DNA from: a virus
Lineage: Duplodnaviria; Caudoviricetes
Direction: 5' to 3' (one strand)
DNA length: 62,835 nt
Virus record (IMG/VR): IMGVR_UViG_3300032282_004527
Span: 1-62,835 of that record
Position 1 is the stretch's first letter. Every line of letters starts with the position of its first letter. Below the pieces are notes generated by a model. It worked only from the letters and a program-made list of their open reading frames with translations. It did no database searches and was not told the origin of the DNA. The translations under genes were made by a program, and so were the position numbers. This document shows, piece after piece, positions 15,288 to 32,465 of this stretch.

Positions 15288-15345
15288 CCGAATCGCCTGA
15301 CCACCCATGCGCCCTTCGCACAAGCAAGGGCAGAAAGGAAAAAGC

Positions 15346-15504: not shown

Positions 15505-15635
15505 GCCCAGGCTGGAGACGGGGTTGGGGGACCCCGATAACAAAACCCCCTGCTCCCCCTACTCGCACCATCTCTTCAACCCTCCGCTTCGCTGAGGAGG
15601 GTTGAAGAGACGATGCGAGTCGTCTACACCCGGCC

Positions 15636-15723
15636 GCCTCTCCGTGGGCTTCATACACGGCTGCGGGCGAGGACCCCGTCAACATCCTCAAGCATCCGCC
15701 TACCCGTGGGCATCGTACACGGG
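15636..15723 (+). other. Pseudoknot-like repeat family PK-B, copies 1-2 (15636-15660 and 15698-15723)
   Basis: GCC-TN-YCCGT-G-GGC-N4-TAC-ACGG. Confidence 0.6.
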
Positions 15724-15740
15724 AAGAGAGGAGTGCAGCC

Positions 15741-16067
15741 ATGCGCTACACATTCCCTATGCAAACACTGAAGAGCCTCGACCAACTGGTCGAGAGCCTG
15801 CAAGCAGACTCGGAGGCCGCATGCCTCCTGGACTGCGAACCAAACGGGCACGAGTGTGAGAGCAACCGCTCTCACGCTCAGACAATGAAAGAGGTGGTAG
15901 ACGCGGCTCACCGCGCCACCACTATAGCCGAGGCAATCGAGGTCGCGCGCGACCTCGGATTCTATAACATCCAGGGGTATCGCATGATACCCTTGGAAAT
16001 CATCCAGGCAGCGGTGGCAGCCGCAGCCTCGGAAGACCTAGAGACGGGCGACGAGCCCGCTCTCTAG
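15741..16067 (+). CDS. Hypothetical early protein
   Basis: GAGGAG RBS; 108 aa. Confidence 0.7.
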   Translation: MRYTFPMQTLKSLDQLVESLQADSEAACLLDCEPNGHECESNRSHAQTMKEVVDAAHRATTIAEAIEVARDLGFYNIQGYRMIPLEIIQAAVAAAASEDLETGDEPAL

Positions 16068-16073
16068 GCAAAG

Positions 16074-16100
16074 CGTCCTGAGCACGACGTTAAACTGCTC
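16074..16100 (+). other. PK-A copy 3
   Basis: CGTC-CT-GAGCA-C-GACG-TTAAAC-TGCTC, 6 nt after a stop codon. Confidence 0.7.
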
Positions 16101-16175
16101 GGGGGTTGGCATACCTCCTCGCTAGGGTTGAGCCTCGCTCCCCTAACCAGGAGGTCTGCCAAAAAAACCGGGGCA

Positions 16176-16366
16176 GCGCCTGCCGGCGACTGCCTGTGGC
16201 CTACCGGGCCGCAAGGAGACGGCGCCTGCCGGCGCACTGCCTGTGGTCTACCGGGCCGCAGGGAGACGGCGCCTGCCGGCGCCTGCCTGTGGTCTACCGG
16301 GCCGCAGGGAGACGGCGCCTGCCGGCGCCTGCCGACGCTCTGCCTGTGGCCTACGAGACCACAGAG
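16176..16366. repeat. 46-47-bp GC-rich tandem repeat, 3 full units plus partials
   Basis: CTGCCTGTGGYCTACCGGGCCGCARGGAGACGGCGCCTGCCGGCGC at 16190, 16237 and 16283; partial at 16340. Confidence 0.95.
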
Positions 16367-16422
16367 GGGGTGAAGAAGTAGGTCGGCCTAAGTCTGTAGC
16401 CCTAAAAAAACCAGAGGAGGAA

Positions 16423-16566
16423 ATGGCCTACATGGAAATAGACCAGGAACTAATCGAAATGTGGACGGGACTTACTACCCGCCCCGCCCGCGTACTAATG
16501 CCGGCAACAATCATCGCTGCCGGAAGCGTAGCAATATGGCTGGTAGTTATGGCGTTCGCACCATAA
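16423..16566 (+). CDS. Small membrane protein
   Basis: GAGGAGG RBS; C-terminal hydrophobic helix. Confidence 0.6.
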   Translation: MAYMEIDQELIEMWTGLTTRPARVLMPATIIAAGSVAIWLVVMAFAP

Positions 16567-16582
16567 CTACTAAAAAGGGGGA

Positions 16583-16636
16583 TGCACCCCCTCCTCGACC
16601 CCCCGCATTCGCGAGGGGGGTCGAGGAGGCGGTGCA
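16583..16636. repeat. Long hairpin with CCCCCGCATTCGCGAGGGGG apex, copy 4
   Basis: Near-identical to the 15237 copy. Confidence 0.85.
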
Positions 16637-16656
16637 AATCGCCTGGCCGACCATCT

Positions 16657-16683
16657 GCCTACCTGCGGGCATCGTACACAGGT
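16657..16683 (+). other. PK-B copy 3
   Basis: GCC-T-ACCTGC-G-GGC-ATCGTAC-ACAGGT, directly before the RBS of the 16704 gene. Confidence 0.6.
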
Positions 16684-16703
16684 AAACAAGAAAGGAAGAC
16701 AAC

Positions 16704-17105
16704 ATGAACAACGTCAAGGTAGACCCATTCACCGGCGAACAAGCGCCGGAAGAAACCACCCCAACCTCCACCGCGTGGGACATGTTCCCACAGGAAATCA
16801 CCTTCATCACCGTTGTCCGCAAGGACACGGGAACCAAAGTCTGCTACCGAGTCAACCGACAGGGGCTGGACGCCTGGGCGGCGGGGCAAGTAGTCCTATC
16901 CGCACAAGAAAAGTCCGGCCTCTTCAAGGGCCTCGCCTTCCTGCAGGCATCAGGGGCATACCCCTACAAGAACCTGAAGGAAGACAAGACCGGCAGCCGC
17001 CACCACGAGCGACTCGCCGAGGTCTTCGACCGGGTCGTCATGAAGGGCATGACGACCATCACGGTGAACGGGGAAGAAATCCCCTTCGAGTTCATCGTTC
17101 ACTAA
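16704..17105 (+). CDS. Hypothetical early protein
   Basis: AGAAAGGAAG RBS; 133 aa. Confidence 0.75.
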   Translation: MNNVKVDPFTGEQAPEETTPTSTAWDMFPQEITFITVVRKDTGTKVCYRVNRQGLDAWAAGQVVLSAQEKSGLFKGLAFLQASGAYPYKNLKEDKTGSRHHERLAEVFDRVVMKGMTTITVNGEEIPFEFIVH

Positions 17106-17110
17106 ACACA

Positions 17111-17137
17111 CGTCCTGAGCACGACGTAAAACTGCTC
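17111..17137 (+). other. PK-A copy 4
   Basis: CGTC-CT-GAGCA-C-GACG-TAAAAC-TGCTC, 5 nt after a stop codon. Confidence 0.7.
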
Positions 17138-17149
17138 CGGCTTAAACGT

Positions 17150-17250
17150 CTGCCTATGGTCTACCAGACCGCAGGGAGACGGCGCCTGCCGGCGCGCTGC
17201 CTGTGGTCTACCGGGCCGCAGGGAGACGGCGCCTGCCGGCGCACTGCCTG
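17150..17250. repeat. Second cluster of the 47-bp tandem repeat (2 units plus partial)
   Basis: Units start at 17150, 17197 and 17244. Confidence 0.9.
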
Positions 17251-17531
17251 CGTACTCGAAAGAGAAAAAATAAAAATTAAAGCCAAAGACTAAACACACG
17301 GCAACAACACCCAATGCGAATGTAAGTCGCTGGCTTTGACAAATTTTCGATATGAAAAAAAGATAACCCCCTAAAAAACTTAAAGTCAGTAGGCCTAGAA
17401 AAATAAGCAGCCAACCCCCGTTCGCCCGCCCCTTCGGGGCGAGGGCGGGCGAACGGGGGTCGGCGGCTTTTATTTGCCTATGGTCTATCCTTGAACCTAC
17501 CCCATAGCCTAGGTCAATAGAAAGGAACAAC

Positions 17532-17759
17532 ATGGCAGACTCAAAACAATGGTTTGAAGAACTTAAGAAACGAATCGTAACCATCCAAATGACTTACGAA
17601 GATGCTGAAGACCTCGTATATGCATGCAAAGTACTACGGACACAATACCTAAACTGCGGGGCTAAACTTCCCGCTGAACATGCACTCTACATGGCAAGCA
17701 TCATCGAAGACGCACAAGACGTAGTTGAAAAAGAATACAGTAAGGAAGGTAACTGGTAA
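17532..17759 (+). CDS. Hypothetical protein
   Basis: AGAAAGGAACAAC RBS. Confidence 0.7.
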   Translation: MADSKQWFEELKKRIVTIQMTYEDAEDLVYACKVLRTQYLNCGAKLPAEHALYMASIIEDAQDVVEKEYSKEGNW

Positions 17760-17926
17760 TGGAAAAAACACAGTGGACTACTGACGAACTCAGAGAAGAA
17801 TTCGAAGTCGTTGGCTTCATGGCACCATTCGTTGTAGTTGTTAGAAAGTCTGATGGACAAAAAGGGTCAATGGAGTTCGTCCACCACCCTAGAATCTACT
17901 CCAACTTCGTACCGTACAACGCATAG
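17759..17926 (+). CDS. Small hypothetical protein (55 aa, not in the ORF track)
   Basis: MEKTQWTTDELREEFEVVGFMAPFVVVVRKSDGQKGSMEFVHHPRIY...; TAATG coupling and AAGGAAGG RBS. Confidence 0.7.
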   Translation: MEKTQWTTDELREEFEVVGFMAPFVVVVRKSDGQKGSMEFVHHPRIYSNFVPYNA

Positions 17927-17941
17927 GAAGGACAACAAAAT

Positions 17942-18340
17942 ATGCCACAACCACATACGTACTACGTCGTCCGACACTGGACTTCCGGAAAAAACGAGAA
18001 CAAATGCTACACGTGCAACAAGTGGCACCTACGGTACTACGGCGCTGTCCACTGCGCAGGACTCGTCAAGGCACACGTAAATGCTTATTCAGTTGCTAAA
18101 ATTAATCAAGAGGGGGAACTCTTTACAGACATATCCCTCATACACGAAATCCCTTACTTGAAAGAAAAAGCATCAAATAGGCTCAGCGAAAGAACAAAAC
18201 GAAATGAAAAGAAAAAGAATCAACAAGCAGACGAAGCACAACGACGACTTCGCGAAAAAATGAGAAACGACAGGATTGAAGAAATCAAAAACCTGTCCGT
18301 CATCCTCGCTGCTGCTACAGCAATAATCGCTACTATGTAG
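17942..18340 (+). CDS. Hypothetical protein
   Basis: AGGAAGG RBS; CYTC motif. Confidence 0.65.
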   Translation: MPQPHTYYVVRHWTSGKNENKCYTCNKWHLRYYGAVHCAGLVKAHVNAYSVAKINQEGELFTDISLIHEIPYLKEKASNRLSERTKRNEKKKNQQADEAQRRLREKMRNDRIEEIKNLSVILAAATAIIATM

Positions 18341-18356
18341 AAAAGAAAGAAACACT

Positions 18357-18470
18357 ATGGGTGCAATGAAACGACTACTCGAAGCCATACTCATGCCAGA
18401 CAACGACATGAGGCCCATCGACTGCGGATGCGCAACAGAGTTCTTCCTAGGACCTAACTACCGAATCTAA
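18357..18470 (+). CDS. Small hypothetical protein (37 aa)
   Basis: MGAMKRLLEAILM... fills the gap and has a purine-rich leader. Confidence 0.4.
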   Translation: MGAMKRLLEAILMPDNDMRPIDCGCATEFFLGPNYRI

Positions 18471-18472
18471 TC

Positions 18473-18503
18473 AAAGCCTGCCCGTGGGCTTTATACACGG
18501 GCA
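18473..18503 (+). other. PK-B copy 4
   Basis: AAAGCC-TGCCCGT-G-GGCTTT-ATAC-ACGGGCA, between a stop codon and an RBS. Confidence 0.65.
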
Positions 18504-18514
18504 CAAGGACAACA

Positions 18515-19096
18515 ATGAACACAAAGCCAGAACTAATCAATAGCTTAGTAAGAAACAGCGACAAATACGCACGACTTGTCAGCAACATCAAGGCACACCC
18601 CTCTACCATAGAGCACCAGGCCGAAACACACATCGGCTTTCACATCTGGGTTGGATCTACACCCGACCATATCAAACCTCTCATATGCAGAGAGTTCACA
18701 CACCCCTTCTGCGGATACTGCTACAGACTAAACAAAGACCTAAAGTACGCTCAGGACGAAGCAGAACACTCCGCTAACCTGCTCGACGCAGGAGAACTAG
18801 AAGGAGCATTCGACTCACTAAGAGAGGCTATCGAAACACTTAGACCCTGGGGAGTGCCAGAAAAACTCGAGCAAGCACTCACACTACTTAATGAAATAAA
18901 AACAAGTCTTGGCAACGAACCCAAGTTCCTATCACCTACCCTACTGAAAAAAATTGAAGAGTATGTTCGAATCAATTTTGACGACGAATATGGACTCGGA
19001 AATGGAGTCGCCGTTCTTATCGGACGGTACGCAATGCGTGGATGGGAAAACGCTGTCAACGCAATCAACTACATGATGTGCAACAAAGTACACTAA
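18515..19096 (+). CDS. Hypothetical protein
   Basis: 193 aa; AAGGACAAC RBS. Confidence 0.7.
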   Translation: MNTKPELINSLVRNSDKYARLVSNIKAHPSTIEHQAETHIGFHIWVGSTPDHIKPLICREFTHPFCGYCYRLNKDLKYAQDEAEHSANLLDAGELEGAFDSLREAIETLRPWGVPEKLEQALTLLNEIKTSLGNEPKFLSPTLLKKIEEYVRINFDDEYGLGNGVAVLIGRYAMRGWENAVNAINYMMCNKVH

Positions 19097-19105
19097 AGTA
19101 ACCAC

Positions 19106-19139
19106 AAGCCCCCAGTAAGCAATTGCTTACTGGGGGCTT
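19106..19139. repeat. Perfect 34-bp palindrome
   Basis: AAGCCCCCAGTAAGCAA|TTGCTTACTGGGGGCTT, intergenic, no U-tract. Confidence 0.9.
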
Positions 19140-19158
19140 ACAACAAAAAGGAACAACA

Positions 19159-19485
19159 ATGAAAACAACACAAGAAAACAAAACAACATCAAAGAAAACC
19201 CTCACACACATCTTCAGCATCGTACCTCGTGTAGCAATCATGTGCGTACACAGATCCAAAACAAACATAAAAGCAGAGTTCAGAGTCTTCGCCTGTCTCA
19301 ACAACGACATCCTAGACATCACATGGCACGTAGGAGTGCTACTCAACGCCAACGGTAAAAACGGCGTCGTCGCAAGAGGATACGGTTTAGACCTGGAAAT
19401 GCACATCGTCAACAACCTAGAGTACGAACTCTACGGCGACAACACAAGAGTACTAGAAGTCAATAAACTCTATAGAGCAATGTAA
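19159..19485 (+). CDS. Hypothetical protein
   Basis: AAGGAACAAC RBS, ATG 19159; GYGLDLEMHIV motif. Confidence 0.7.
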   Translation: MKTTQENKTTSKKTLTHIFSIVPRVAIMCVHRSKTNIKAEFRVFACLNNDILDITWHVGVLLNANGKNGVVARGYGLDLEMHIVNNLEYELYGDNTRVLEVNKLYRAM

Positions 19486-19493
19486 GGAAAACA

Positions 19494-19757
19494 ATGAGAA
19501 ACAAAGTAATCGATAAACTAGGAGAAAAATTTTTCAGCAAAACAACTGAAATTGACTACCTACTTAACATAGTAGACAAAATAGACGAAACAGAAAAAAA
19601 AGAAATGGATATAAAAATCCTTCAAGCCATCGCCATCTACGACCAACTCACCGCAGCAATCATCGACTACATCACCAACGAAGAAGACAAGAAAACAGCC
19701 ATGAACCTCGTAAGCAACATGATGAAAATCTTGATGCTAAAATACAACAATAAATGA
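19494..19757 (+). CDS. Hypothetical protein
   Basis: AAGGA RBS; operonic. Confidence 0.6.
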   Translation: MRNKVIDKLGEKFFSKTTEIDYLLNIVDKIDETEKKEMDIKILQAIAIYDQLTAAIIDYITNEEDKKTAMNLVSNMMKILMLKYNNK

Positions 19758-20053
19758 ACTACGACTTCAAAAAACTACTCAACTACGCACACAACAACCC
19801 ACTAGAACAACCTGACTGGCGAACCAGGCCATGGGGACGACCAGTACTAACAACACCAACAGGCGACGACCCAGAACTCGTAGCCACAGCAACAATAAGA
19901 TACAATGGAATTTTTATAGACGGTATAAAAATCTACTACCGAAACAACGCACTAGAAATTATCTCGCCTTCTAAGTTTGTTGACCAATATGAACAAACGC
20001 TGTTCTCCAGCGACATCATATGGGTCTACAGAAACCACATAAAAACAAAATAA
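19754..20053 (+). CDS. Hypothetical protein
   Basis: Coupled to the upstream gene; 99 aa. Confidence 0.6.
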   Translation: MNYDFKKLLNYAHNNPLEQPDWRTRPWGRPVLTTPTGDDPELVATATIRYNGIFIDGIKIYYRNNALEIISPSKFVDQYEQTLFSSDIIWVYRNHIKTK

Positions 20054-20119
20054 AAAAGTAACCACGAGGCCCGTAGTAGAACAACTACTGCGGGCCTCAA
20101 TACTAGAAAGGAGGTTTCT

Positions 20120-20362
20120 ATGGAAAATAAATTCGTACTGCCCGGACACCAGCCTGCAACATGCCCATGTGTAGCATGCAGAATATACAGGAAAGAAAAA
20201 CCTAACCCAACGACAAAAACAAAAACATCAAAGAAAAGAAACTACCTATGGATATCAGACGGACTAGACCATGAAGTAACTACACTCGCAATTGAACTAA
20301 ACTGCTCTAAGGCTAAAGTCGTCAGAGACGCAATCATCAAATACATCAACGAAAGAAAGTAA
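20120..20362 (+). CDS. Zn-knuckle plus ribbon-helix-helix protein
   Basis: HQPATCPCVAC, then RNYLWI...CSKAKVVRDAIIKY RHH; AGAAAGGAGG RBS. Confidence 0.7.
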   Translation: MENKFVLPGHQPATCPCVACRIYRKEKPNPTTKTKTSKKRNYLWISDGLDHEVTTLAIELNCSKAKVVRDAIIKYINERK

Positions 20363-20366
20363 AACT

Positions 20367-21026
20367 ATGGAAGTAAAGTGGTCAGACAGCACTAAGACAG
20401 CATACTCATTCAATATCCCATCTGAAAAGACATGCCCTGGAAAAACCCCCACGTGCGTATCCAAATGCTACGGACTCAGAGGACGATTTCGTCCTGAGAT
20501 GAATGGCTCAGCAACAACAGACTATAACTTCAAAGTTCTTCAAGACGATGTAACGGCTATTGAAAGAATTAAATGGCCAAACAAAAAAAGCATCAACAGC
20601 TTCAGAATAAACGGAGTAGGAGACATATACTCCCTAGAATTTGGCAGATCTATTTTCAAGATGTGCCACAACAACAACAACAAAGAATTCTGGCTGTACA
20701 CAAGATCCTTCGACATCATTGATACACTTCTCAGTGAACAAAACAAACCTGAAAACCTCGTGCTGTTCTTGTCTGCAGATGTTGACAACGTAAATAAAGC
20801 ACACGAACTAGCCGAAAAATATAACCTACCCGTAGCCTACATGGGACACGACGTAGCAACAGAAAAAGACGCTTTCGTATGCCCAAGTACTACAGGTGAC
20901 CCTAGGTTCAAACTATCTAAAAGAAAAGAAGAAGCGCCATGCATCAAATGCAAGTACTGCTTTAATAGAAAAGAAAAATTCGATATTTTCAGAACTAAAA
21001 AGGGCGTAAGATTCCTCTATCACTAA
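20367..21026 (+). CDS. Gp88-like Cys-rich (radical-SAM-like) protein
   Basis: FNIP...TCPG...C...CY, FRINGVGD, FWLYTRS and C-terminal CIKCKYC. Confidence 0.75.
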   Translation: MEVKWSDSTKTAYSFNIPSEKTCPGKTPTCVSKCYGLRGRFRPEMNGSATTDYNFKVLQDDVTAIERIKWPNKKSINSFRINGVGDIYSLEFGRSIFKMCHNNNNKEFWLYTRSFDIIDTLLSEQNKPENLVLFLSADVDNVNKAHELAEKYNLPVAYMGHDVATEKDAFVCPSTTGDPRFKLSKRKEEAPCIKCKYCFNRKEKFDIFRTKKGVRFLYH

Positions 21027-21035
21027 GGAGATAAC

Positions 21036-21458
21036 ATGATAAACAAAACAAAAAGAACAAAACAAGAAATTGAATTCTTCATGTCACTGCTCGAAGAAGT
21101 AGGAGACAACCAAACCAAATTCCCAGAAAACTACGTACTAAGCAATGTACGTAGACAAGACAGAGTAGCACTCTACTCTGTATACGAAATCCTTGGGCGT
21201 GTAGGAAACAAACTAGGATACATCTGGAACTGCCCACACTGCCTTTCTTTTAGGTCATTTGACGAAGACTGCTGTGACCATAACTCAGACGGAGACTGCT
21301 CCGACTGCGGAGGGGAAGGATGGTATGACTGCCACGTCTGCAGAGGATGTGGAGAAGGTCAAGTAGGAGAAGCCCGATGCTACGCATGCAAAGGAAAAGG
21401 AGAAACACCCTGTAACCTCTGCAGGCCGGAATATATGCCAGACTACACACCATACTAA
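21036..21458 (+). CDS. Protein with DnaJ-type CxxCxGxG zinc finger
   Basis: CSDCGGEG, CHVCRGCG, CYACKGKG. Confidence 0.75.
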   Translation: MINKTKRTKQEIEFFMSLLEEVGDNQTKFPENYVLSNVRRQDRVALYSVYEILGRVGNKLGYIWNCPHCLSFRSFDEDCCDHNSDGDCSDCGGEGWYDCHVCRGCGEGQVGEARCYACKGKGETPCNLCRPEYMPDYTPY

Positions 21459-21470
21459 AGGAAAAACAAC

Positions 21471-21779
21471 ATGACAGTATATCAAAATATAGACGAACTA
21501 TATTCAACAGAACTGCTGTTCATATTAGCAAACAGAGCCGCAGAACCATTCGACACAGCTAGAACAACAATGTCCGACATGCTGGATAAAAAGGAAGTGC
21601 TGCACGCACTCCAAGAACTAGGACTTCTTAACGTATTCAAAAACATCATCAAAGAACTAAGTGAAGCAAATAGCCAACTAAAACTTCTTGGGGAAGGCGT
21701 CATGCCCGAAGAAGAAGTTAAAACACGAATTGGAAAATCCATTCGTTCCGCACTCATCTATTTTGATCCAGCAATGTAG
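21471..21779 (+). CDS. Hypothetical protein
   Basis: AAAGGA RBS; 102 aa. Confidence 0.65.
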   Translation: MTVYQNIDELYSTELLFILANRAAEPFDTARTTMSDMLDKKEVLHALQELGLLNVFKNIIKELSEANSQLKLLGEGVMPEEEVKTRIGKSIRSALIYFDPAM

Positions 21780-21791
21780 TTTAGGATTAAT

Positions 21792-22238
21792 ATGAACATA
21801 AAAGAAGCAGCAAGAAACCACATTATAAAAACATACGAACAAGCAAAAAACACATGGACAAAAGCAGACTGGACGCACGAACTCGTATTAGACGGTAAAG
21901 GAGTTCTATGGGGAACAGACGAGTTAGAAGAAAAAACATGGCCGAAATACTGCAACGGACAAGACGGACCTAGAAACTCTAAAGACACAACAGAGTCTTG
22001 GGGAGACGTATGCGAATACTGCGCAGACGCCAAAGACCACGCAAAACTTGCAGAAGAATTCGCTGAAATAGCAGTGAATCTTATTAAGCAAGATAAGTGG
22101 AACGAAGCAGAAAACAACGCATACATTGCCTACACCTTCGAAATGACATACGGAGACGCCCCAACATGGCGACCTCTACTACAGAAAATAGAACAAGCAA
22201 AAGAACTATTCGAAGAAGAAGGTATCCCCTTCAACTAA
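21792..22238 (+). CDS. Hypothetical protein
   Basis: 148 aa; CEYC followed by a helical region loosely resembling the 18515 ORF (CGYC...AEHSANLL). Confidence 0.65.
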   Translation: MNIKEAARNHIIKTYEQAKNTWTKADWTHELVLDGKGVLWGTDELEEKTWPKYCNGQDGPRNSKDTTESWGDVCEYCADAKDHAKLAEEFAEIAVNLIKQDKWNEAENNAYIAYTFEMTYGDAPTWRPLLQKIEQAKELFEEEGIPFN

Positions 22239-22245
22239 AATAAAA

Positions 22246-22867
22246 GCCCTACGCGGGGATGGGCTCCCGCATTCTACAAACACAAAAGAAGGGACAATGA
22301 CAATGAAAGACTACACGCTGAACAAAGAATACGTAGAAGCACAACTCGGAATCGACGAGCCGCGCTGGACGAGCGAGGACCTCAACGTGATCGGGGCCAT
22401 GCTCCATGCATGCGACACCCCAGAGGAAGCACGCACCGTCTTCAGTCTTGCGTGCCGCATCGGCATCGCGTGGCAGTGCTGGGACTGCGACAGCATCCTC
22501 ATCGACTTCGAGGAGTCGTGCTGCGGCATCCGACCCGACAACATCATGTACTGTCAGTGCGGTAACGTGCACGTCGCCATGGCTCCAGAGATCCACAGCA
22601 ATGGATGCTCGTGCCCCGAGTCTGCACCAAGGTGGGACATGCTAATCGTGACCTACGTTCCACAGCACCTGCAGGAGACGGCTCGTGCCACGGGCTCCTG
22701 GAATGGATGCGACCTGGAAGCGGTGGTCACCGTGGAATGCGCCAAGGAGTTCGAGGGCATGGAGTTCGTCAAGGTGGAGGGAAGGATGCTGAGGCCCTAA
22801 AAACCCTGAAGTAGAAGACGAGCAGAACTAACGAGGCGCCCTATGCAAGAATAAGCTCCCGCATTCT
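22246..22867 (+). repeat. Imperfect 30-bp direct repeats (22246-22275 and 22838-22867) flanking one gene
   Basis: GCCCTAYGCRRGRATRRGCTCCCGCATTCT, 24/30 identical. Confidence 0.8.
22297..22800 (+). CDS. Cys-rich hypothetical protein
   Basis: 167 aa; visibly more GC-rich than its neighbours. Confidence 0.7.
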   Translation: MTMKDYTLNKEYVEAQLGIDEPRWTSEDLNVIGAMLHACDTPEEARTVFSLACRIGIAWQCWDCDSILIDFEESCCGIRPDNIMYCQCGNVHVAMAPEIHSNGCSCPESAPRWDMLIVTYVPQHLQETARATGSWNGCDLEAVVTVECAKEFEGMEFVKVEGRMLRP

Positions 22868-22881
22868 TAGGAGGAACAACA

Positions 22882-24180
22882 ATGCTAGAACTACTCCCCT
22901 ACCAAAAAGAAGGTGTTAATTTTCTCAAGTCCAAAACCTACGCACTACTTGCTGACGATCCTGGACTAGGTAAAACAGCACAGGTCCTCCGATCTATAAA
23001 CACACAACAACCAGTACTCGTTATCTGCCCTAAAGTAGCAAAAGGAGTCTGGAAAGCAGAAGCAACTAAATGGATAGGACCAAACTACAAAGTCACTATA
23101 TGCAAATCTAAAGCTACTGCAAAGTACCCGGCTCCTGGAGAGATGGTCATCATGTCCTACGACAGTGCGGACATCACAGACAACTACATCTCTAAAAACA
23201 CAATCCTCGTTGCAGACGAAGCACACCTCGTAAAAGCAGGCAACAATAAAAGATGCGCACTCTTTAGAACCATCACTCGACAAATCGTATGGAACCAAGG
23301 TAAAATCTGGCTCCTTACAGGAACACCTATGCCTAATAACCCACAAGAACTTTGGAATATTCTTGCATACACCCCTATGGCTGAACAGGCTTGGGGTAAT
23401 GAAAGAAACTTTTTCAAACTATTCAATGGGTTCAGAATCAGAACAGCCTTTGGAATCCAAGTCAAGTGGGGTAAGCCTACGCCAGCCGCTGGAGAAGGGT
23501 TTCGTAAGGTCGCTCTTCGTAGACGACGTCACGAAGTTCTTAAAGAACTCCCTGAAAAGTTCTACCAAGAAGACCTTGTACCTATTTCAAGAGAAGCACT
23601 CAAAGCATGCACCACACTTCTAAAGAAACTAGAAGAAATGGGCATCGACGAAGACAGAATCGTTGACGTAATCATGGACGCTAACAAGTACGGAATTCCC
23701 GCACAACTTATTGCCGAGGCTCGTAAGGCCCTAGCAATCGCTAAGATTCCTACGCTTCTAGAGCACGTCAGCGAAGCCGAGAATACTCAAACACCACTAG
23801 TAGTCTTCAGCGCTCACAGGGCCCCAATAGACGCACTTAATGGACGTCCAGGGTGGGGCATCATCACTGGAGACACGTCTGCTAACGAACGCACTCGACT
23901 CGTTGAAGAGTTCCAAGCAGGCAACCTGATCGGCATGGCTGCTACCATCAAAGCAGCAGGTGTCGCATTAACCCTCACTAAAGCAAACAAGTGCCTATTC
24001 GTAGACAGAGACTGGACGCCAGCTAATAACAGCCAAGCAGAAGCACGCCTACAACGCATTGGGCAAAAATTCAATGTGCTCGTAACAACGCTTGTCTGCG
24101 AACACGCTATCGACACAAAAGTCTACAAAACACTGATCAAAAAGCAAATGCTTATTGAAGAAGTAGTAGGGAACGGATAA
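22882..24180 (+). CDS. SNF2-family (SMARCAL1/HARP-like) helicase
   Basis: LADDPGLGKT, DEAH, LTGTPMPN and QAEARLQRIGQ. Confidence 0.9.
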   Translation: MLELLPYQKEGVNFLKSKTYALLADDPGLGKTAQVLRSINTQQPVLVICPKVAKGVWKAEATKWIGPNYKVTICKSKATAKYPAPGEMVIMSYDSADITDNYISKNTILVADEAHLVKAGNNKRCALFRTITRQIVWNQGKIWLLTGTPMPNNPQELWNILAYTPMAEQAWGNERNFFKLFNGFRIRTAFGIQVKWGKPTPAAGEGFRKVALRRRRHEVLKELPEKFYQEDLVPISREALKACTTLLKKLEEMGIDEDRIVDVIMDANKYGIPAQLIAEARKALAIAKIPTLLEHVSEAENTQTPLVVFSAHRAPIDALNGRPGWGIITGDTSANERTRLVEEFQAGNLIGMAATIKAAGVALTLTKANKCLFVDRDWTPANNSQAEARLQRIGQKFNVLVTTLVCEHAIDTKVYKTLIKKQMLIEEVVGNG

Positions 24181-24182
24181 AA

Positions 24183-24566
24183 ATGAAAATCACCAAAAAG
24201 ATGCTTATAGGTATTAAGGCTGGAAAGATCAACCCCACTGACTCTGAAATCCGTAAGGCACACAAAGAATTCAAAGAGCTAACACTAAAAGCACTTCAAA
24301 CTAACTACCACCACAAAGCAGCCTACTACGCTAAAGAGGCTTGCGAAGTCATCAACAAACTCACCAATGGGTATGGAGTAGAGTACTTCATCACAAACAA
24401 AGGTAACGGATACTGGTACGTAAACCAGGGAGAAACCTACGCAAAAACACTACTGTTCCCCGATCCATTCCTTAAAGAAAATTCACGGCGTAAGTATCCG
24501 TTCGTATGGACCTGGGGAGACGTAGTAGAAAAAGAAGACCTTGAAACATTTAAGAGTCTTCTATGA
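24183..24566 (+). CDS. Hypothetical protein
   Basis: 127 aa; GYGVE...YVNQGETYAKT motif. Confidence 0.65.
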   Translation: MKITKKMLIGIKAGKINPTDSEIRKAHKEFKELTLKALQTNYHHKAAYYAKEACEVINKLTNGYGVEYFITNKGNGYWYVNQGETYAKTLLFPDPFLKENSRRKYPFVWTWGDVVEKEDLETFKSLL

Positions 24567-24805
24567 GACACCTCGTATGCTCTAACAACCTAGCAAAAGT
24601 AATGTCTAGGTCACACATGACAGTATCCCATCTAGCTAAGATCACAGGACTAAACAAAGAAACAATAAGAAAATACATGAGAGGAGAGTCAGAACCAAGT
24701 GTCTACATAGCAATACTTATCTCAGACGCATTGTTCTGCAACATACAAAGTCTATGGTCAGCAGAAGTCTATGAAACAAAAGACTTGCAAAGCTATGATG
24801 ACTAA
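24563..24805 (+). CDS. XRE-family HTH regulator
   Basis: MTVSHLAKITGLNKETIRKYMRGESEPS. Confidence 0.85.
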   Translation: MRHLVCSNNLAKVMSRSHMTVSHLAKITGLNKETIRKYMRGESEPSVYIAILISDALFCNIQSLWSAEVYETKDLQSYDD

Positions 24806-24813
24806 GGTATAAT
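24785..24813 (+). promoter_or_regulatory. Sigma70-type promoter
   Basis: TTGCAA-17 nt-TATAAT. Confidence 0.75.
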
Positions 24814-24819
24814 TAGCAC

Positions 24820-24884
24820 GTTGTTCCTTCCTTTCTGCAAAAAGCCCCCTCTTAGTGATAACACACTAAGAGGGGGCTTTTTTT
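24820..24884 (+). ncRNA. Candidate ~65-nt small RNA with anti-RBS 5' seed
   Basis: Bounded by the promoter above and a hairpin plus T7 terminator; 5' GTTGTTCCTTCCTTTCTG is complementary to the phage RBS consensus. Confidence 0.55.
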
Positions 24885-25000
24885 ATTTAGGTTATAACTA
24901 ATAACTAAACTTCAGTTTCTACAAAAAGCCCCCTCTTAGTGATAACACACTAAAAGGGGGCTTTTTTTATTTAGGTTATAACTAATAACTAAACTTCAGT
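24833..25000. terminator. Tandemly duplicated (2 x 84 bp) bidirectional intrinsic terminator
   Basis: AAAAAGCCCCCTCTTAGTG...CACTAARAGGGGGCTTTTTTT twice, between convergent operons. Confidence 0.9.
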
Positions 25001-25459
25001 AGTAGGAACGTCTGAATAATCTACCGACTTCTTACTTTTTTTATTAGTAAGGGGGGCCTCAGCCAAAGTCGGTGGGCGCGAAGACTTACGACCTTCTTTC
25101 TTCTTAGGCTCATTTGCAAGAACTTTCTTGGCTTCCTTCTCCACCTTCTTAAGGTTCTTCTCACGAAGCTTACGAGCCAGAACCGCCAACTCATGAGCAC
25201 GAGAGGGCTTCCCCATGGGGGCTGCTGGCTGCTCTACCTCTACAGGCTTCTCCTTCTCTGGGAGGACCTTAGGCTGCTCCTGGACGGCAGCCGGAGGCTC
25301 CGCCGGGATAGCCCGAGCGTAGACGATAGCGTCGTCAGGGAAGTAGAACTTCTCATTGTTTGAAGAAACAAAACGGCCAAAAGCATCGCTTCCGAGATGA
25401 CCGAACATACTGAACGAGCAGCGCTCGTCCCAACCAACCACACGAACTTCGACCTTCAT
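24989..25459 (-). CDS. Hypothetical protein with basic C-terminus
   Basis: GGAGGT RBS; 156 aa. Confidence 0.65.
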   Translation of the reverse strand: MKVEVRVVGWDERCSFSMFGHLGSDAFGRFVSSNNEKFYFPDDAIVYARAIPAEPPAAVQEQPKVLPEKEKPVEVEQPAAPMGKPSRAHELAVLARKLREKNLKKVEKEAKKVLANEPKKKEGRKSSRPPTLAEAPLTNKKSKKSVDYSDVPTTEV

Positions 25460-25590
25460 GACTTTACCTCCGGAGTATTTCCGTCCTCAACCCACTTGAG
25501 GAACTGCTGATAGTCAACGTTGTTGGAGTCCAAAGGAATCCAAGCACCGTCCTCTACTCTTCTAACCATCTTCCCATGTATCTCGTACAT
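25456..25590 (-). CDS. Small tail-fibre-associated protein (44 aa, not in the ORF track)
   Basis: IPLDSNNVDYQQFLKWVEDGNTP, a motif commonly found after phage fibre genes; coupled on both sides. Confidence 0.65.
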   Translation of the reverse strand: MYEIHGKMVRRVEDGAWIPLDSNNVDYQQFLKWVEDGNTPEVKS

Positions 25591-26702
25591 TACAGCTCTG
25601 CCTCCGCAGTTAAGTGTATCCCGCATCGAATAGGATGAGCAGAAACATTAGAATCGTTCTGAACAAACAAAGAGTTGTCGCTAACAGTGGGAACACTAGC
25701 AGTGTAGTCTTTTGTAAAGTCCGACGCATTCCCCCACCCACTTCCAGAGCGATACGGGTTATAAGTGACGACTGTCGGATACGCTCGCATGTATACGGGG
25801 AACCTACAGTCCACCCCCATGTACTGGGTGTCTTTCAACGGAGTAACGTAATTAATAGACCCATCATCCCCCGCAGAAGACGCTGGTGTAGTACCTCTGG
25901 GGAACGTGCTGAAGAAGTGACGCTGGCACCGATGTATCTCAAGAATAAGTGGGGAGTATTCGAACTGACTGTTCGTTGTCCCTAACTCCACCTGAACCCC
26001 TGTGACAACGAAACCATCGTTTGCGCCAGCCGTCCCCGTGGGAGTGTAAGCGAAACCTATAGCCAACGTCTGCGTGCTCCCAGAACCAATAGTGAACGTT
26101 GCAGAGAACGTCTGGTTCGAAGTAGTAAGCGTCTTCACACTTGTCTGACTTTGGAGGTTTGTCCAAGTACCCTGGCTCAAATCCCAGGAGCTTCCCCCGT
26201 AAGTACCACCACGAACGCAGTACACGGTCAACGAAGACGACGTTGAAGTTGCAAAGTTTCGGGCTTTAAAAGAAACCGTAATGGTCTTTCCCGACAAATC
26301 CTGGCAGTCCGTCGCATCGATAATCTGATAGAAATACAGCGTACTTGTGTCAGAGTTACCGCTGGCTCTTATAACCCTAGCGCCGTACAAATTGTAGTAA
26401 GGAGTAGATCCGCCAGAAAAGCGATCAACAGAAAGTCCAGCAACCATACCAGTACGATACCCAAACCAGCGGTCAGCCGTGTACGTAAGAAGACCCCCAG
26501 TCTTGCCACTACTAACGTCAGTAAACGACGTACCTCGCTGCCAAACATCGAAACCCCCATTAATAAGGCGGTTACGCCACTGAAGGCTTCCTGTGGACCC
26601 GGCACGATCAAGCACCGCTGAAGTTGTAGCAATCGTGCTGTCTACGTCCGTACTCGTGATTGTGCCATCCCGAATCTGATCGCCACGAATGTCCGTACCC
26701 AT
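25590..26702 (-). CDS. Tail fibre / receptor-binding protein with CBM-like domain
   Basis: RNRLINGGFDVWQRGT...YTADRW...GVQVELGT...CQRHF pattern. Confidence 0.75.
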   Translation of the reverse strand: MGTDIRGDQIRDGTITSTDVDSTIATTSAVLDRAGSTGSLQWRNRLINGGFDVWQRGTSFTDVSSGKTGGLLTYTADRWFGYRTGMVAGLSVDRFSGGSTPYYNLYGARVIRASGNSDTSTLYFYQIIDATDCQDLSGKTITVSFKARNFATSTSSSLTVYCVRGGTYGGSSWDLSQGTWTNLQSQTSVKTLTTSNQTFSATFTIGSGSTQTLAIGFAYTPTGTAGANDGFVVTGVQVELGTTNSQFEYSPLILEIHRCQRHFFSTFPRGTTPASSAGDDGSINYVTPLKDTQYMGVDCRFPVYMRAYPTVVTYNPYRSGSGWGNASDFTKDYTASVPTVSDNSLFVQNDSNVSAHPIRCGIHLTAEAEL

Positions 26703-26739
26703 CAAAATCTCCTACTCAAGTCTTGTAGGAGTATATCAT

Positions 26740-26780
26740 AAATGAAAAGGCCACGCACGGAGTGAGAGGTGCGTGGCCTT
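26740..26780 (-). terminator. Intrinsic terminator
   Basis: 12-bp stem AAGGCCACGCAC/GTGCGTGGCCTT with minus-strand tail TTTTCATTT. Confidence 0.6.
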
Positions 26781-26871
26781 AAAAGCATTCTTCTAGATGT
26801 GGCAGAAGATATTCAGTTGTACCTGCCCGGCTCCTCCAGCCGGATTTAGACTCGAACTATAACACACCACT

Positions 26872-26909
26872 AAAAAAGAAACAAGGCCCCTCCCGAAGGA
26901 AGAGCCTTG
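26872..26909 (-). terminator. Intrinsic terminator after the fibre gene
   Basis: CAAGGCTCTTCC-TTCG-GGAGGGGCCTTG followed by TTTCTTTTTT. Confidence 0.85.
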
Positions 26910-26927
26910 CTCCTAGTCAACTAGACT

Positions 26928-28331
26928 CTAGTAGAAGTAAACGGCGCGAACGCTGTCCCCGCTCACAGGAGCCGCATTGAAGGTGATGACATCGCTAGCC
27001 AGGGTGTAGTCCACGCTGACCACCTGCTGGAGGCCGTTGAGGAACACCTGGGTCATCCCAGCACCCGGAACGTGTGCAAGAGTGAACGCGGTGTTGCTGC
27101 CATTGACGCTGCCCGCAGGAGTCTCAATGGACATCTGAACCATGATGGGGTCGCCATCGCCACCCTTGATACCGCTGGAGAAGGCCGCAGCAGCGATCTT
27201 CGCAGAGGTAACTGCCTCGTCCGCCAGTTTGTCAGTCGTGACGTTGAGGTTAGCGATCTTCGCGGTGATCACCGAGTTAGCAGCTAGTTCGCTGCTGGAG
27301 ATACCGAGAGCCGCAACCTTCAGGCCAGACCCGCTCTTGCTCAGGCTAACGCCGTCCAGAACCAGGTTCAACTGGTTGGAGAGGTTGCTTAAGCCGTCGC
27401 CAACAGTCAGAGAGGTAGGACCCGTGAACTGGCTGAACTCGAGAGAAGTCGTGCCCAGGGTGATGGGAGCATCCGTCACGAGGACGAACTGCTGGTTGCC
27501 GTTTACGCTACCCTCCGAGATGAAGCACAGCATACCGGGCTGAACCTCGTTGGAGACGTCTGCGTCGGTCGAGCGGGCCCAAGCCCCAGCAGCGACCACG
27601 TAGATGCCGTTGTCGGCCCCGGAAGTCTGATTCTTGACCAGCACGCGGTCGCCAGCGATAACGGCGACACCATCAATCGTCTGGGTGCCCGAGAGGGTCA
27701 GGTTGGCGGTCGAGGCAACGCGGCAAGCAGCCTTGATTCGAGCGCCGGTGCTCAGGGCGTCAACGTAGGTCTTCGTGACAAGGTCGCTGCCAACCGTCGG
27801 GGTGGCGGTGCTCTGGATCTTGAAGGCCCCGAGGCTGACATTCCCACCGACGGTCAGGGACTCCAGATTGGGCACGTAGGAGGCGCCCAGCTTGGTACCG
27901 TTCCAGACGCCCGCGCTGATCGTGCCGACGGTGGAGATCGAGTCATCGCCGCTGTAGGTCCCGCCTGCAACCGAAGCAAGGGTAGCATTGTATGCCTGCA
28001 CGTCGCTGCCGATGGCAAGGCCGAGAGCGGTGCGTGCGCCAGAGGCGGTCGAGGACCCCGTACCGCCATACAGGATGGGGATCTCAGAAGCCAGTGCGAA
28101 GTTGGCGAGGTTGCTGGAGTAGGCCTGAACGTCCGAGCCAAGAGCCAGCCCGAGGTTCGTGCGTGCGGCGGAAGCGCTGGTTGCGCCCGTACCGCCGTAT
28201 GCGACAGCAATCTCCGTTGCATGCCACACACCGCTGGTCAGCGTACCGACCTGGGAGATGTCCGACTGGATAAGCGCGCTGGCCGGAACCGTTGCGCTGA
28301 TAATCTGTGTACCGCGAATCTGCGTAGCCAT
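26928..28331 (-). CDS. Tail or head fibre structural protein
   Basis: GGTGAT..AARTNLGL repeats; KAACRVASTANLTLSGTQTIDGV..GDRVLVKNQT..NGIY motif. Confidence 0.8.
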   Translation of the reverse strand: MATQIRGTQIISATVPASALIQSDISQVGTLTSGVWHATEIAVAYGGTGATSASAARTNLGLALGSDVQAYSSNLANFALASEIPILYGGTGSSTASGARTALGLAIGSDVQAYNATLASVAGGTYSGDDSISTVGTISAGVWNGTKLGASYVPNLESLTVGGNVSLGAFKIQSTATPTVGSDLVTKTYVDALSTGARIKAACRVASTANLTLSGTQTIDGVAVIAGDRVLVKNQTSGADNGIYVVAAGAWARSTDADVSNEVQPGMLCFISEGSVNGNQQFVLVTDAPITLGTTSLEFSQFTGPTSLTVGDGLSNLSNQLNLVLDGVSLSKSGSGLKVAALGISSSELAANSVITAKIANLNVTTDKLADEAVTSAKIAAAAFSSGIKGGDGDPIMVQMSIETPAGSVNGSNTAFTLAHVPGAGMTQVFLNGLQQVVSVDYTLASDVITFNAAPVSGDSVRAVYFY

Positions 28332-29683: not shown

Positions 29684-29721
29684 ACCTCTGCCAGACGAAC
29701 TAGTGCTTAGGGGTGGTTCAA

Positions 29722-30348
29722 ATGAAAAGTTTCAAAGTTGCTCCCTTGTTCGAAGCGCCCTTGGCGCAGGTGTCGTCTGGCGATAACACCTCTAAGCAGT
29801 TCGAAGCAAGGGAGCATTCTTTTTCTTCCGAATCTGCAGACTTCATCGAACTCCTCCACAGCTCAACAGACTACGTCTATAAGAAAATCAATCAATACTG
29901 CCTCGTTAAAAAAGATTCAATCTGCTGCTACTGGACAGGGCTTCACTCCGTCAGTAACGGGTACAAGACTCCCGTCCTAAAGTTCGGACCTTTCAGGAAG
30001 TACGGTAAGTCCGTTTCCTACATCCTCTGGTGCCTTAAGTACGAGAAAGAACCCGAAGCCGGATTTGTTATTATGAACACCTGCATCTGCCAGAACGTGT
30101 GCTTGAACGAAAATCACCTAGCTGCTGTTAAGCGCCAAGACGTAAAAATTTTTCTCTCCTTGAAGGAGAACTGCCTGATCGACGAAAAAATCTTCACCCC
30201 AGACGGGTTAGACAAGACCCCCGAGCTTAGGGGATACGTCACCCCCCACTTGCGTGGTTGGTACGAATCCTTCAAGGCAAAGGGTATGCTAAAGAAGAAG
30301 CGATACGCTAAGCGAAAGCAGGAAGAAAGGACCAACCAAAATGGCTAG
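29722..30348 (+). CDS. Degenerate HNH/His-Me-finger-like protein
   Basis: CCYWTG...GY...IMNTC...CLNENHL. Confidence 0.55.
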   Translation: MKSFKVAPLFEAPLAQVSSGDNTSKQFEAREHSFSSESADFIELLHSSTDYVYKKINQYCLVKKDSICCYWTGLHSVSNGYKTPVLKFGPFRKYGKSVSYILWCLKYEKEPEAGFVIMNTCICQNVCLNENHLAAVKRQDVKIFLSLKENCLIDEKIFTPDGLDKTPELRGYVTPHLRGWYESFKAKGMLKKKRYAKRKQEERTNQNG

Positions 30349-31012
30349 ACCGAAGAAGACCCAAGAGACGGCTCCCCGCATCGTAGAAAAGGATCAGGTA
30401 GTTCTCACGATCCGTGATGAGGATGACGATGTTCCTGTCTTCGAAGAGGACGAGGAGCAGTTCAACGAGCATGACCTGGAGGAGATCACCGAGATCGCTG
30501 CTAAGATTGTCGGAGAGACCCGAGAAGCCGTCTCCAAGACCGCTCAGAGCGCCGTCAGGACTGACAACAACCTAGCGGAGGTTATGCGTGCTCTCGACGC
30601 TTTGACGAAGTCGTTTACGGCCTTGTCCAACAAGGTCGACTCTCTCGTCATGAGGGACGACCCCTCCAAGATCCTCTACACTCTCGACGAAGTTATCGAG
30701 GAAAAGTTTTCAACGCTTCTTTCTTCTATTGAGTCTGTAGGAAGTCTCACAGCTCCCGTGTATCCTGCCCCCCCTAAGCTTACGGCATCTAGAGATCTGG
30801 ACGAGATCCTTTCCAAGGCACCTCCTAAGGAGGTCGTAGATAAGATCCGTAAGTGGGTGGGGACGATTCCTAGCGGAAAATCTGCATCCCTGGATACGGT
30901 TACCGTCGAGATTGGTAAGCGGCTCGGGATGGATCCTAGGCTGGTTCACGGAGTCATCCAGTCGCAGGAAGATATTGTTAAGATCTCCAACGGTAAGATC
31001 TACAGCCTGTAG
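30341..31012 (+). CDS. Hypothetical protein, possible C-terminal winged helix
   Basis: AAAGGA RBS; 223 aa; acidic N-terminal region and coiled coil. Confidence 0.7.
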   Translation: MARPKKTQETAPRIVEKDQVVLTIRDEDDDVPVFEEDEEQFNEHDLEEITEIAAKIVGETREAVSKTAQSAVRTDNNLAEVMRALDALTKSFTALSNKVDSLVMRDDPSKILYTLDEVIEEKFSTLLSSIESVGSLTAPVYPAPPKLTASRDLDEILSKAPPKEVVDKIRKWVGTIPSGKSASLDTVTVEIGKRLGMDPRLVHGVIQSQEDIVKISNGKIYSL

Positions 31013-31048
31013 CGTGTTCGTGTGGCCCCTACGTTACAGGGGCATACT

Positions 31049-31124
31049 GCACCCGTAGCTCAATGGATAGAGCATCGGCCTTCTAAGCCGAGGGTTACAG
31101 GTTCGAGTCCTGTCGGGTGCGCCA
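31049..31124 (+). tRNA. tRNA-Arg(UCU)
   Basis: Cloverleaf; anticodon loop CT-TCT-AA; GTTCGAGTC T-arm; encoded CCA. Confidence 0.95.
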
Positions 31125-31127
31125 CAA

Positions 31128-31200
31128 GGGTCTGTAACTCAGCGGTCAGAGTTTCCGGCTTTTAACCGGCAAGTCGTGGGTTCGAATCCCACCAGACCCA
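31128..31200 (+). tRNA. tRNA-Lys(UUU)
   Basis: GGGTCTG/CAGACCC acceptor stem; CT-TTT-AA loop. Confidence 0.92.
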
Positions 31201-31225
31201 ACCCCTCTTAAAAGAAAGGACCAAC

Positions 31226-31822
31226 ATGGCATACCTAGAGGATCGAGTAACCCATCTAGAAAACGAAGTCTCTCGTCTAACGGAGACTGTTGGTTTGATT
31301 TTTAAATACATCCTCGAACCATACCGTCCGGCTTCGTCAACCCCTGTAGACACTCCAGCAGACGTTCCCGCAGACGTCCCTACGAAGGATGCGGAACCTA
31401 ACTCAAATAATAGATTGTATTCTTACTCTCGCCCTTTGAGCAAGGAGCAGGGGAAGGAGTGGGTGAGCTTGCTCCTGTCTCACAAGGAAAAGTTCCTCGA
31501 GGAATACAAAAAGTTCACTAAAAAGGAAAAGAACGGTTGCGTCATCTGGACGGGTTCCTACACAACCGCCGGAAAAAACAAGGGTAAAAAGCCTAAGATT
31601 CGCATCCCCCAAACAAGGGTTTATCGTTCTGTTGGTGTCTCCTACATCAACACGCGAGTAGCCTACTGGGCGATACTCAACAAGAAGCCCGTATTGCTTA
31701 CTGACCGTGTAACCAACACGTGCAAGGTAGAAGGGTGCGTAGCCAAGGAGCATCTTAAGTTTCTGACTCTTGAGGATAGCCTATACTCCGGACTTAAAGC
31801 CTATAAGGAGAATCGTAGGTAA
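31226..31822 (+). CDS. Degenerate HNH/His-Me-finger-like protein
   Basis: GCVIWTG...RVAYW...VTNTCKVEGCVAKEHL. Confidence 0.6.
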   Translation: MAYLEDRVTHLENEVSRLTETVGLIFKYILEPYRPASSTPVDTPADVPADVPTKDAEPNSNNRLYSYSRPLSKEQGKEWVSLLLSHKEKFLEEYKKFTKKEKNGCVIWTGSYTTAGKNKGKKPKIRIPQTRVYRSVGVSYINTRVAYWAILNKKPVLLTDRVTNTCKVEGCVAKEHLKFLTLEDSLYSGLKAYKENRR

Positions 31823-31828
31823 AGGCTT

Positions 31829-31901
31829 GCTGGGGTAGCCCAACGGCAGAGGCAGGGGACTTAAAATCCCCCAAGTGTGGGTTCGAATCCCATCCCCAGT
31901 A
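31829..31901 (+). tRNA. tRNA-Leu(UAA) with short variable loop
   Basis: GCTGGGG/CCCCAGT acceptor stem; GGGGA-CTTAAAA-TCCCC anticodon arm. Confidence 0.9.
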
Positions 31902-31904
31902 CAT

Positions 31905-31979
31905 GGGACCGTAGCACAGGGGTTAGTGCGTTGGCCTTATAAGCCAGTGATCCTGGTTCGACTCCAGGCGGTCCTACCA
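31905..31979 (+). tRNA. tRNA-Ile(UAU)
   Basis: GGGACCG/CGGTCCT acceptor stem; TGGC-CTTATAA-GCCA anticodon arm; encoded CCA. Confidence 0.9.
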
Positions 31980-31997
31980 AACATTCCTAGGAGACTT

Positions 31998-32465
31998 ATG
32001 AGACGTTCTAAAATTTACATCCGAGCTGACGGCAGAAAGTATGTTGTTGTGTATCGAGGAGAAAGGAGGGAAACTACTCTGTACTCTCGGTACCTTATGG
32101 AGCGACATCTTGGTCGGAGGCTGGAGCCACATGAACACGTTGACCACATCAACGACGACCCTACCGACGACCGTATAGAGAATCTTCAAATCATATCCCA
32201 ACTGGAAAATACTCTTAAGTACCATGCTCTCCATCCTAAAGAGATGTGGGATCTTTCTTGTTTAGAGTGTGGTGTTTCATTTCAAAGGCTTGCCAAAGAT
32301 TGTCGCAAAGGACAAAAGGCAGGCAAAGTGGGCCCTTTTTGCGGTCGCTCTTGTGCGGGTAAAGGTACTAGAAGAAAGGCGAAAAAGGATGAAGAAAACC
32401 GAGTCTTGCCTGATGTGCAACCGGTGGTCGAAGTGCAAGAGCCCTCAGGTGGGGCTGGAGTTTAG
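31998..32465 (+). CDS. HNH homing endonuclease
   Basis: ME.HLGR.L...EHVDHINDDPTDDRIENL plus CxxC...FCGRSC; AGGAG RBS; overlaps the polymerase start. Confidence 0.85.
   Translation: MRRSKIYIRADGRKYVVVYRGERRETTLYSRYLMERHLGRRLEPHEHVDHINDDPTDDRIENLQIISQLENTLKYHALHPKEMWDLSCLECGVSFQRLAKDCRKGQKAGKVGPFCGRSCAGKGTRRKAKKDEENRVLPDVQPVVEVQEPSGGAGV

Follow-up and report, generated by a model that had tools for sequence, protein, structure and literature searches.

Where the early genes of an uncultured freshwater phage meet its convergent late genes, does the short intergenic region encode a small RNA directed against the phage's own ribosome-binding sites, or is it the inverted remnant of a gene start? 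The original prediction had proposed a near-consensus promoter firing straight into a terminator, and a ~65-nt RNA whose unpaired 5' end would serve as an off switch for early genes. The window, i.e., the whole stretch of DNA analysed (62,835 bases), is a whole IMG/VR virus record of the linear class, with a CheckV completeness estimate of 48%. The DNA runs matching it were from freshwater, lake, and estuary metagenomes.

The convergent junction and its terminators

Genes in the window are arranged in strand blocks (Table 1), and the small-RNA candidate sits at the convergent junction of the early block and the tail-fibre block. The 3' end of the early block consists of an SNF2 helicase gene, a 127-aa ORF without known function, and the 80-aa Cro/CI-type HTH gene. 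The last of these closes the block, which agrees with the location at the end of the early region given in the original prediction.

Table 1 Positions of the junction features and of the gene blocks around them (window coordinates)
Feature	Position	Strand	Details
Late and structural genes	terminase 7505-9409, tail fibres 25590-28331	minus	include ORFs of 2167 and 1773 aa
Early block, small genes	14688 to 24805	plus
Last early-block gene, 80-aa Cro/CI-type HTH_3 protein	24563-24805	plus	Pfam E 2.7e-7
Sigma-70-like promoter	24785-24813	plus	TTGCAA (24785-24790), 17-nt spacer, TATAAT (24808-24813)
Minus-strand reading	24802-24837	minus	ribosome site CAGAAAGGAAGGAACAAC, GTG (24819-24817), CTA ATT ATA CCT TAG
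CU-rich tract GTTGTTCCTTCCTTTCTG, proposed 5' seed	24820-24837	plus	reverse complement of early-gene ribosome-site consensus
Predicted small RNA, ~65 nt	24820-24885	plus	predicted from promoter, terminator, and fold
Bidirectional intrinsic terminator T1	24839-24888	both	19-bp perfect stem (hairpin 24839-24882), 6-nt loop
Second terminator copy T2	24923-24966	both	one A.C mismatch in stem
Tandem duplication, 84 bp x 2	24832-24915 / 24916-24999	both	98%, 2 mismatches
Last ORF of convergent late block, 156 aa, no family	24989-25459	minus	downstream of tail-fibre genes
Replication block	29713 to 47757	plus	UDG-PolA fusion, DnaB-like helicase, UvsX-like recombinase, SbcCD-like genes

Some features of the other blocks were recorded as well. 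Four tRNA genes lie in two pairs at 31049-31979 on the plus strand (Arg-TCT, Lys-TTT, Leu-TAA, and Ile-TAT), and all four read A-ending codons. A single 864-aa ORF (32269-34863, plus strand) combines DNA polymerase A with an N-terminal uracil-DNA-glycosylase-superfamily domain; the nearest polymerases of cultured phages were ~24% identical at best (tblastn). The two very large minus-strand ORFs at 1014-7517 (2167 aa) and 49441-54762 (1773 aa) had no Pfam family, and their sole PHROG hit was a weak GTP-binding-domain match in the former.

T1 was considered bidirectional because of the T-rich run after it on the plus strand and the A tract before it, which yields 5 U on the minus strand. When the 71-nt RNA spanning 24820-24890 was folded, its first 19 nt were unpaired, as had been predicted for the 5' end complementary to the ribosome-site consensus. 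The hairpin reached -33.3 kcal/mol (z -7.1), and none of 200 shuffles was as good. A 19-bp stem with a T-rich run is what the end of a short transcript from a trans-acting small-RNA gene calls for. The tract itself exceeds every other sense-strand pyrimidine run in the 10.2-kb early block, where runs of at least 11 nt number 2 for pyrimidines versus 22 for purines. No curated Rfam family was found at gathering score for the predicted small RNA, and window-wide only the 4 tRNAs passed; the 78 sub-threshold Rfam hits over 24500-25100 were hairpin-driven and all far below the cut-offs.

The terminator is held within a tandem duplication, which the original prediction had missed. The final 6 nt of the tract, the terminator, a spacer, and the terminal 11 nt of the 156-aa minus-strand ORF all fall within the duplicated stretch, and the duplication junction is crossed by an independent contig of one metagenome run (X1; 24887-24951).

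Hairpins and repeats are also present in the early region. Four long GC-rich hairpins with the identical 20-nt core CCCCCGCATTCGCGAGGGGG (13793-13812, 13932-13951, 15254-15273, and 16600-16619) are located in or around a GC-rich island (63% GC in the 14001-16000 bin vs ~41-56% in the other 2-kb bins). GC-rich tandem repeats of related units occupy early intergenic positions (46 nt x 3.4 at 16176-16333 and 47 nt x 2.1 at 17150-17250), and the latter is followed by a strong terminator-like hairpin at ~17406-17480.

The promoter-like site and predicted pairing with translation starts

The promoter-into-terminator anatomy was recovered in full, with the promoter-like site, the free 5' tract, and a strong T1 all present. 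The TTGCAA-17-TATAAT site matches the sigma-70 consensus in 10 of 12 positions, has a perfect -10 hexamer, and is A-rich upstream. Its -35 hexamer is contained in the final codons of the HTH gene, and the -10 hexamer begins 3 nt past the TAA stop; the predicted start is a purine at the usual distance from the -10, G24820, which is the first base of GTTGTTCCTTCCTTTCTG. Among 5000 local dinucleotide shuffles, any equally good promoter in the 100 nt upstream was obtained in 1.4%, and one positioned to start at the tract in 0.08%.

Sigma-70-like sites matching in at least 10 of 12 positions numbered 10 in the window vs 7.25 +/- 2.8 in shuffles, i.e., there was no overall enrichment. Four of the other nine lie directly upstream of correctly oriented gene starts (12509, 13534, and 29443 on the minus strand and 34860 on the plus strand), and a 9/12 site with TG was found at 29654 on the plus strand. 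Host-type promoters therefore seem to be used by the phage. Having a perfect -10, a 17-nt spacer, and a TTG -35, the site at 24785-24813 would probably fire in most bacteria, and we infer that the RNA could accumulate.

A 23-nt motif, CTGAGCACGACGTTAAACTGCTC, was found in four plus-strand copies with 0-3 mismatches, none being expected (14594-14616, 15181-15203, 16078-16100, and 17115-17137). The copies precede the first early genes, each ~90-420 nt upstream of the next one, and three of the four come directly after a curated early gene's stop codon (15125, 16067, and 17105). They are candidate phage-specific early promoters or processing sites. Since this different motif stands before the first early genes, early transcription may be served by another polymerase or specificity and not by sigma-70-type promoters; CTGAGCACGACGTTAAACTGCTC neither favours nor rules out the promoter at 24785.

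All seven leaders listed as matches in the original prediction exist, directly before start codons (14670, 15330, 16689, 17522, 19148, 22872, and 35205), and the ORFs behind them have coding-like composition. The full 18-mer gave two hits at up to 3 mismatches, with 0.04 expected. Six copies of GGAACAAC are present in the window: four stand before real starts, the fifth is the tract, and the sixth is located inside a gene. Predicted duplexes of -15 kcal/mol or lower were obtained with 10 of 21 early, 6 of 25 middle, and none of 34 late starts, and with ~5% of background windows. The mean duplex energy of the seed on early starts was not matched by any of 200 shuffles or of 80 pseudo-seeds, i.e., reverse complements of 80 real leaders; the original prediction had made enrichment of early leaders among the predicted targets a check on itself, and it passed, the enrichment being strong. 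In cofolds with nine translation starts, pairing covered the SD and the spacer in every case and ran to the base before the start codon (ddG of -11 to -27 kcal/mol across the nine targets tried), so that the claimed extension into the AACAAC spacer was seen as well. The predicted fold and the duplex statistics together describe an accessible seed with beyond-chance complementarity, as in a trans-acting small-RNA gene. Scored against an ungapped position weight matrix built from early leaders, the tract came 168th among 125,632 positions; this matrix is uninformative because A-richness dominates it.

Flanked by the stop at 24805 and the hairpin at 24839, the tract might be a cis-acting 3'-UTR element of the early operon, carried on every read-through early mRNA. 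Intramolecular pairing, either to purine-rich stretches or to leaders of the same RNA, would then tune stability or translation; in a variant of this explanation, a processed 3'-derived fragment would be the active form and a promoter would be unneeded. When 24540-24892 was folded, the tract paired with the purine-rich GAGAGGAGAG (~24676-24686) in the HTH coding sequence, and extra complementarity to the 14688 start (24813-24819) is located upstream of the predicted start, where only the longer RNA would contain it. As a precedent, an anti-SD motif in the 3' UTR of Staphylococcus aureus icaR pairs with the 5' UTR of the same mRNA, according to PMC3868564, and an anti-SD pyrimidine motif between stop codon and terminator is common to both. 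The cistron next to the candidate, however, has no SD to pair with, its start overlapping the stop of the preceding ORF, and a dedicated promoter-like site is present. A 3'-UTR motif pairing with the SD of its own cistron, as in icaR, was not found here, the only local partner predicted being the purine segment in the coding sequence. Other candidate partners on the same RNA are up to 10 kb away, and the well-placed promoter would be left unexplained. We consider a cis-acting role improbable.

The minus-strand reading and the possible origin of the tract

Read on the minus strand, the tract makes a perfect ribosome site of the early style, and the GTG after it is spaced as are the starts at 17532 and 35217; SD, spacing, and start codon are thus all in place. 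The 5-codon GTG ORF of the original prediction is real (24819-24802, MLIIP*). An ORF of plausible length and a promoter were not found for this site, as the reading frame closes after 5 codons and two terminators adjoin it upstream. Strong SD-plus-start sites numbered 146 in the window; 70 of them, including the minus-strand GTG site, precede fewer than 30 codons.

Minigenes of such a kind are known: the lambda bar minigenes and CreT-type RNA toxins act by ribosome loading or peptidyl-tRNA drop-off. Here, a very strong SD, GTG, four codons (CUA AUU AUA CCU), and a stop could be expressed from late transcripts reading through the terminators and act in either way. The SD, the in-register GTG, and the 5-codon ORF are as such a minigene would have them, and small ORFs with strong SDs are found at the other convergent junction (47758-47932, minus strand). 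The phage tRNA-Ile(TAT) reads AUA, but this codon argument is anecdotal. Two strong terminators stand immediately in front of the site and leave no space for a promoter, and a minigene is, in our estimate, highly improbable. The small ORFs at the other junction are paralogous mini-ORFs of 20 and 16 codons with very basic products (MAKGKRKMK..., MARGKRKKARR...), both behind the strong site TAGAAAGGAGGT in a direct repeat spaced by 96 nt.

The minus-strand site may also be an inert relic. A fragment bearing a terminator and a ribosome site, along with the first two codons of an early-type gene related to the 14688 start, would have recombined in inverted orientation into the module junction; the promoter hexamers would be chance matches in the AT-rich end of the HTH gene, and any short transcript would lack a selected function. 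The tract is similar to the leader of gene 14688 (14670-14694), the product of which is a DUF4326 protein (E 2.8e-12). The similarity extends over 23 of 26 columns (E 0.006) and includes TGCTAA. It runs through the start codon and four bases beyond it, ending at 24813, an extension that had escaped the original prediction, and the GTG is found exactly where other leaders have ATG. The identical 18-mer was present in three other IMG/VR contigs, each time as the reverse complement of a ribosome site that immediately precedes the ATG of an ORF. All these features are as expected of an inverted gene start, and a relic minus-strand site, which the original prediction had set against its own proposal, gained support from the GTG register, the 14688 similarity, and the 18-mer.

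Strain comparison is in line with a relic as well. In another metagenome run (X2), the flanks were ~99% identical (21 differences in 2314 bases), contig coverage breaks off after 24813 and begins again at 24955, and judging by depth no alignable piece fits into 24814-24954; hence the unit is not fixed in closely related strains. The X2 break falls within one base of the end of the 14688 similarity, i.e., at the same 24813/24814 boundary, which suggests that 24814-24954 is a strain-variable cassette with its own history, the minus-strand end of which would be a gene start. In a run from a different study (X3), ~95% of the 24765-24915 bin was covered, by arithmetic from bin depth, and the only indel at the small-RNA unit among the differences listed was 2 extra T in the T-run. 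The presence of the unit in X3 speaks for the small RNA, but X3 is so closely related that this does not amount to conservation of the seed.

More distant relatives were searched for in the phage, IMG/VR, and metagenome collections, and none above 34% protein identity was found. Helicase relatives were at most 34% identical in IMG/VR and at most 32% in metagenomes, and the region downstream of the best one (L003) was not syntenic. With the 127-aa ORF, the 156-aa ORF, and the DNA polymerase as queries, no locus was obtained in IMG/VR. Blastn of 24300-25300 against phages gave no match, the exact terminator stem was found in 0 contigs, tblastn of the 520-aa late protein against cultured phages returned none, and the run search retrieved no RNA runs with the region.

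An inert relic is also favoured by the 84-bp tandem duplication, which marks the junction as rearrangement-prone, by the orphan strong SD-plus-start sites elsewhere in the window, and by the chance-level frequency of promoter-like sites genome-wide. Several observations argue against it. A promoter of this quality and placement is rare in the local shuffles, a decaying sequence would not be expected to match the consensus best among 81 sequences, and there is no coding-sequence remnant after the ribosome site. Moreover, an ancestral site 1 nt past two terminators and without a promoter would be an odd arrangement. On balance, the relic is a serious possibility and nearly as likely as the small RNA.

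The proposed small RNA and its counterparts

If the small RNA is functional, 24785 to ~24885 would form a self-contained gene. A host-type sigma-70 promoter lying across the HTH stop codon would start transcription at ~G24820, and T1 would end the RNA after ~65 nt. The single-stranded first 18-19 nt would mimic the 16S anti-Shine-Dalgarno tail in extended form: the seed complements both the purine-rich SD and the AACAAC spacer common to the early and middle genes of the phage. By pairing with early and middle starts up to position -1, the RNA would block 30S binding, and late minus-strand genes would be spared, since their leaders differ. A strong terminator and a free seed make a leader-pairing RNA physically likely, if the host polymerase reaches the site, and we infer that it could repress translation.

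As to its timing, a late off switch or timer was unsupported: a sigma-70-type promoter is expected to be active from the start of infection unless occluded or repressed. Early read-through might occlude the promoter, or the adjacent HTH protein might control it; neither is more than a possibility. The original interpretation thus stood as far as anatomy and early-leader enrichment are concerned, and the timer did not.

The seed most likely derives from a gene start similar to that of gene 14688, copied in inverted orientation. Such an origin would explain the GTG and CTAA that follow the seed on the other strand and the extra similarity, but it leaves the well-placed promoter and the super-consensus quality of the tract unexplained. 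Inverted gene-start origin and small-RNA function are compatible, not exclusive. Strain heterogeneity, the chance-level number of promoter-like sites, the minus-strand ribosome site, and a selection effect, the site having been picked from a large scan, were counted against the small RNA. All in all, a functional trans-acting small RNA, probably arisen from an inverted gene start, is plausible at somewhat less than an even chance. The complete scenario is unlikely: a lytic phage would use a ~65-nt RNA, a mimic of the 16S tail generated by an inverted copy of its own gene start beside a promoter, to compete with ribosomes for its own early and middle mRNAs, leaving late ones untouched, as an RNA counterpart of RegA.

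If true, 18 nt would hold a class-wide translational switch and early/late separation would be achieved post-transcriptionally. The locus would also be a clear case of a regulator born from an inverted copy of its target, and it would offer a portable design for selective translational shut-off. If the locus is a relic, it serves as a warning that an inverted ribosome site, a terminator, and a chance promoter look just like a small-RNA gene.

Among bacterial small RNAs, those of the RybB and OmrA/B type have their own promoter, a single-stranded 5' seed of ~16-19 nt that pairs with many mRNAs, and a terminator hairpin with a U tail, in a total of ~65-80 nt. The candidate resembles them in its predicted free 5' end and size and in having little beyond the terminator hairpin, and a promoter-like site lies before it. 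Unlike them, it is phage-encoded, and its seed fits the SD/spacer consensus of the phage itself, not the mRNAs of a host regulon. C/U-rich anti-SD small RNAs are known from Gram-positive bacteria, i.e., RsaE/RoxS, the RNAIII hairpins, and the streptococcal csRNAs. In mycobacteria, a pyrimidine-rich motif of the 6C small RNA pairs with the SDs of several mRNAs, according to PMC6486639. A pyrimidine-rich anti-SD motif directed at several mRNAs would be shared with the candidate, but the motifs of the Gram-positive and 6C RNAs are short (UCCC or C-rich) and lie in hairpin loops, whereas the candidate has an 18-nt linear 5' seed that reaches into the phage-specific spacer.

Among phage RNAs, the c4 RNA of P1/P7 has one target, ant, and is processed from the same operon transcript. 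An antisense RNA, it pairs around a ribosome-binding site and so prevents translation, according to a review (PMC12197685). The candidate would likewise be a phage RNA against ribosome sites. The c4 family was absent among the sub-threshold Rfam hits over 24500-25100. Phage small RNAs have so far been found to act mostly on single targets or host genes, as far as that review (PMC12197685) goes. Within the partial texts covered by the literature search, no phage RNA was found that targets a ribosome-site signature shared by the phage's own genes. The closest concept is that of T4 RegA, one phage protein that binds and shuts down many early-mRNA translation starts; RegA is a protein, whereas the candidate would be an RNA acting by base pairing.
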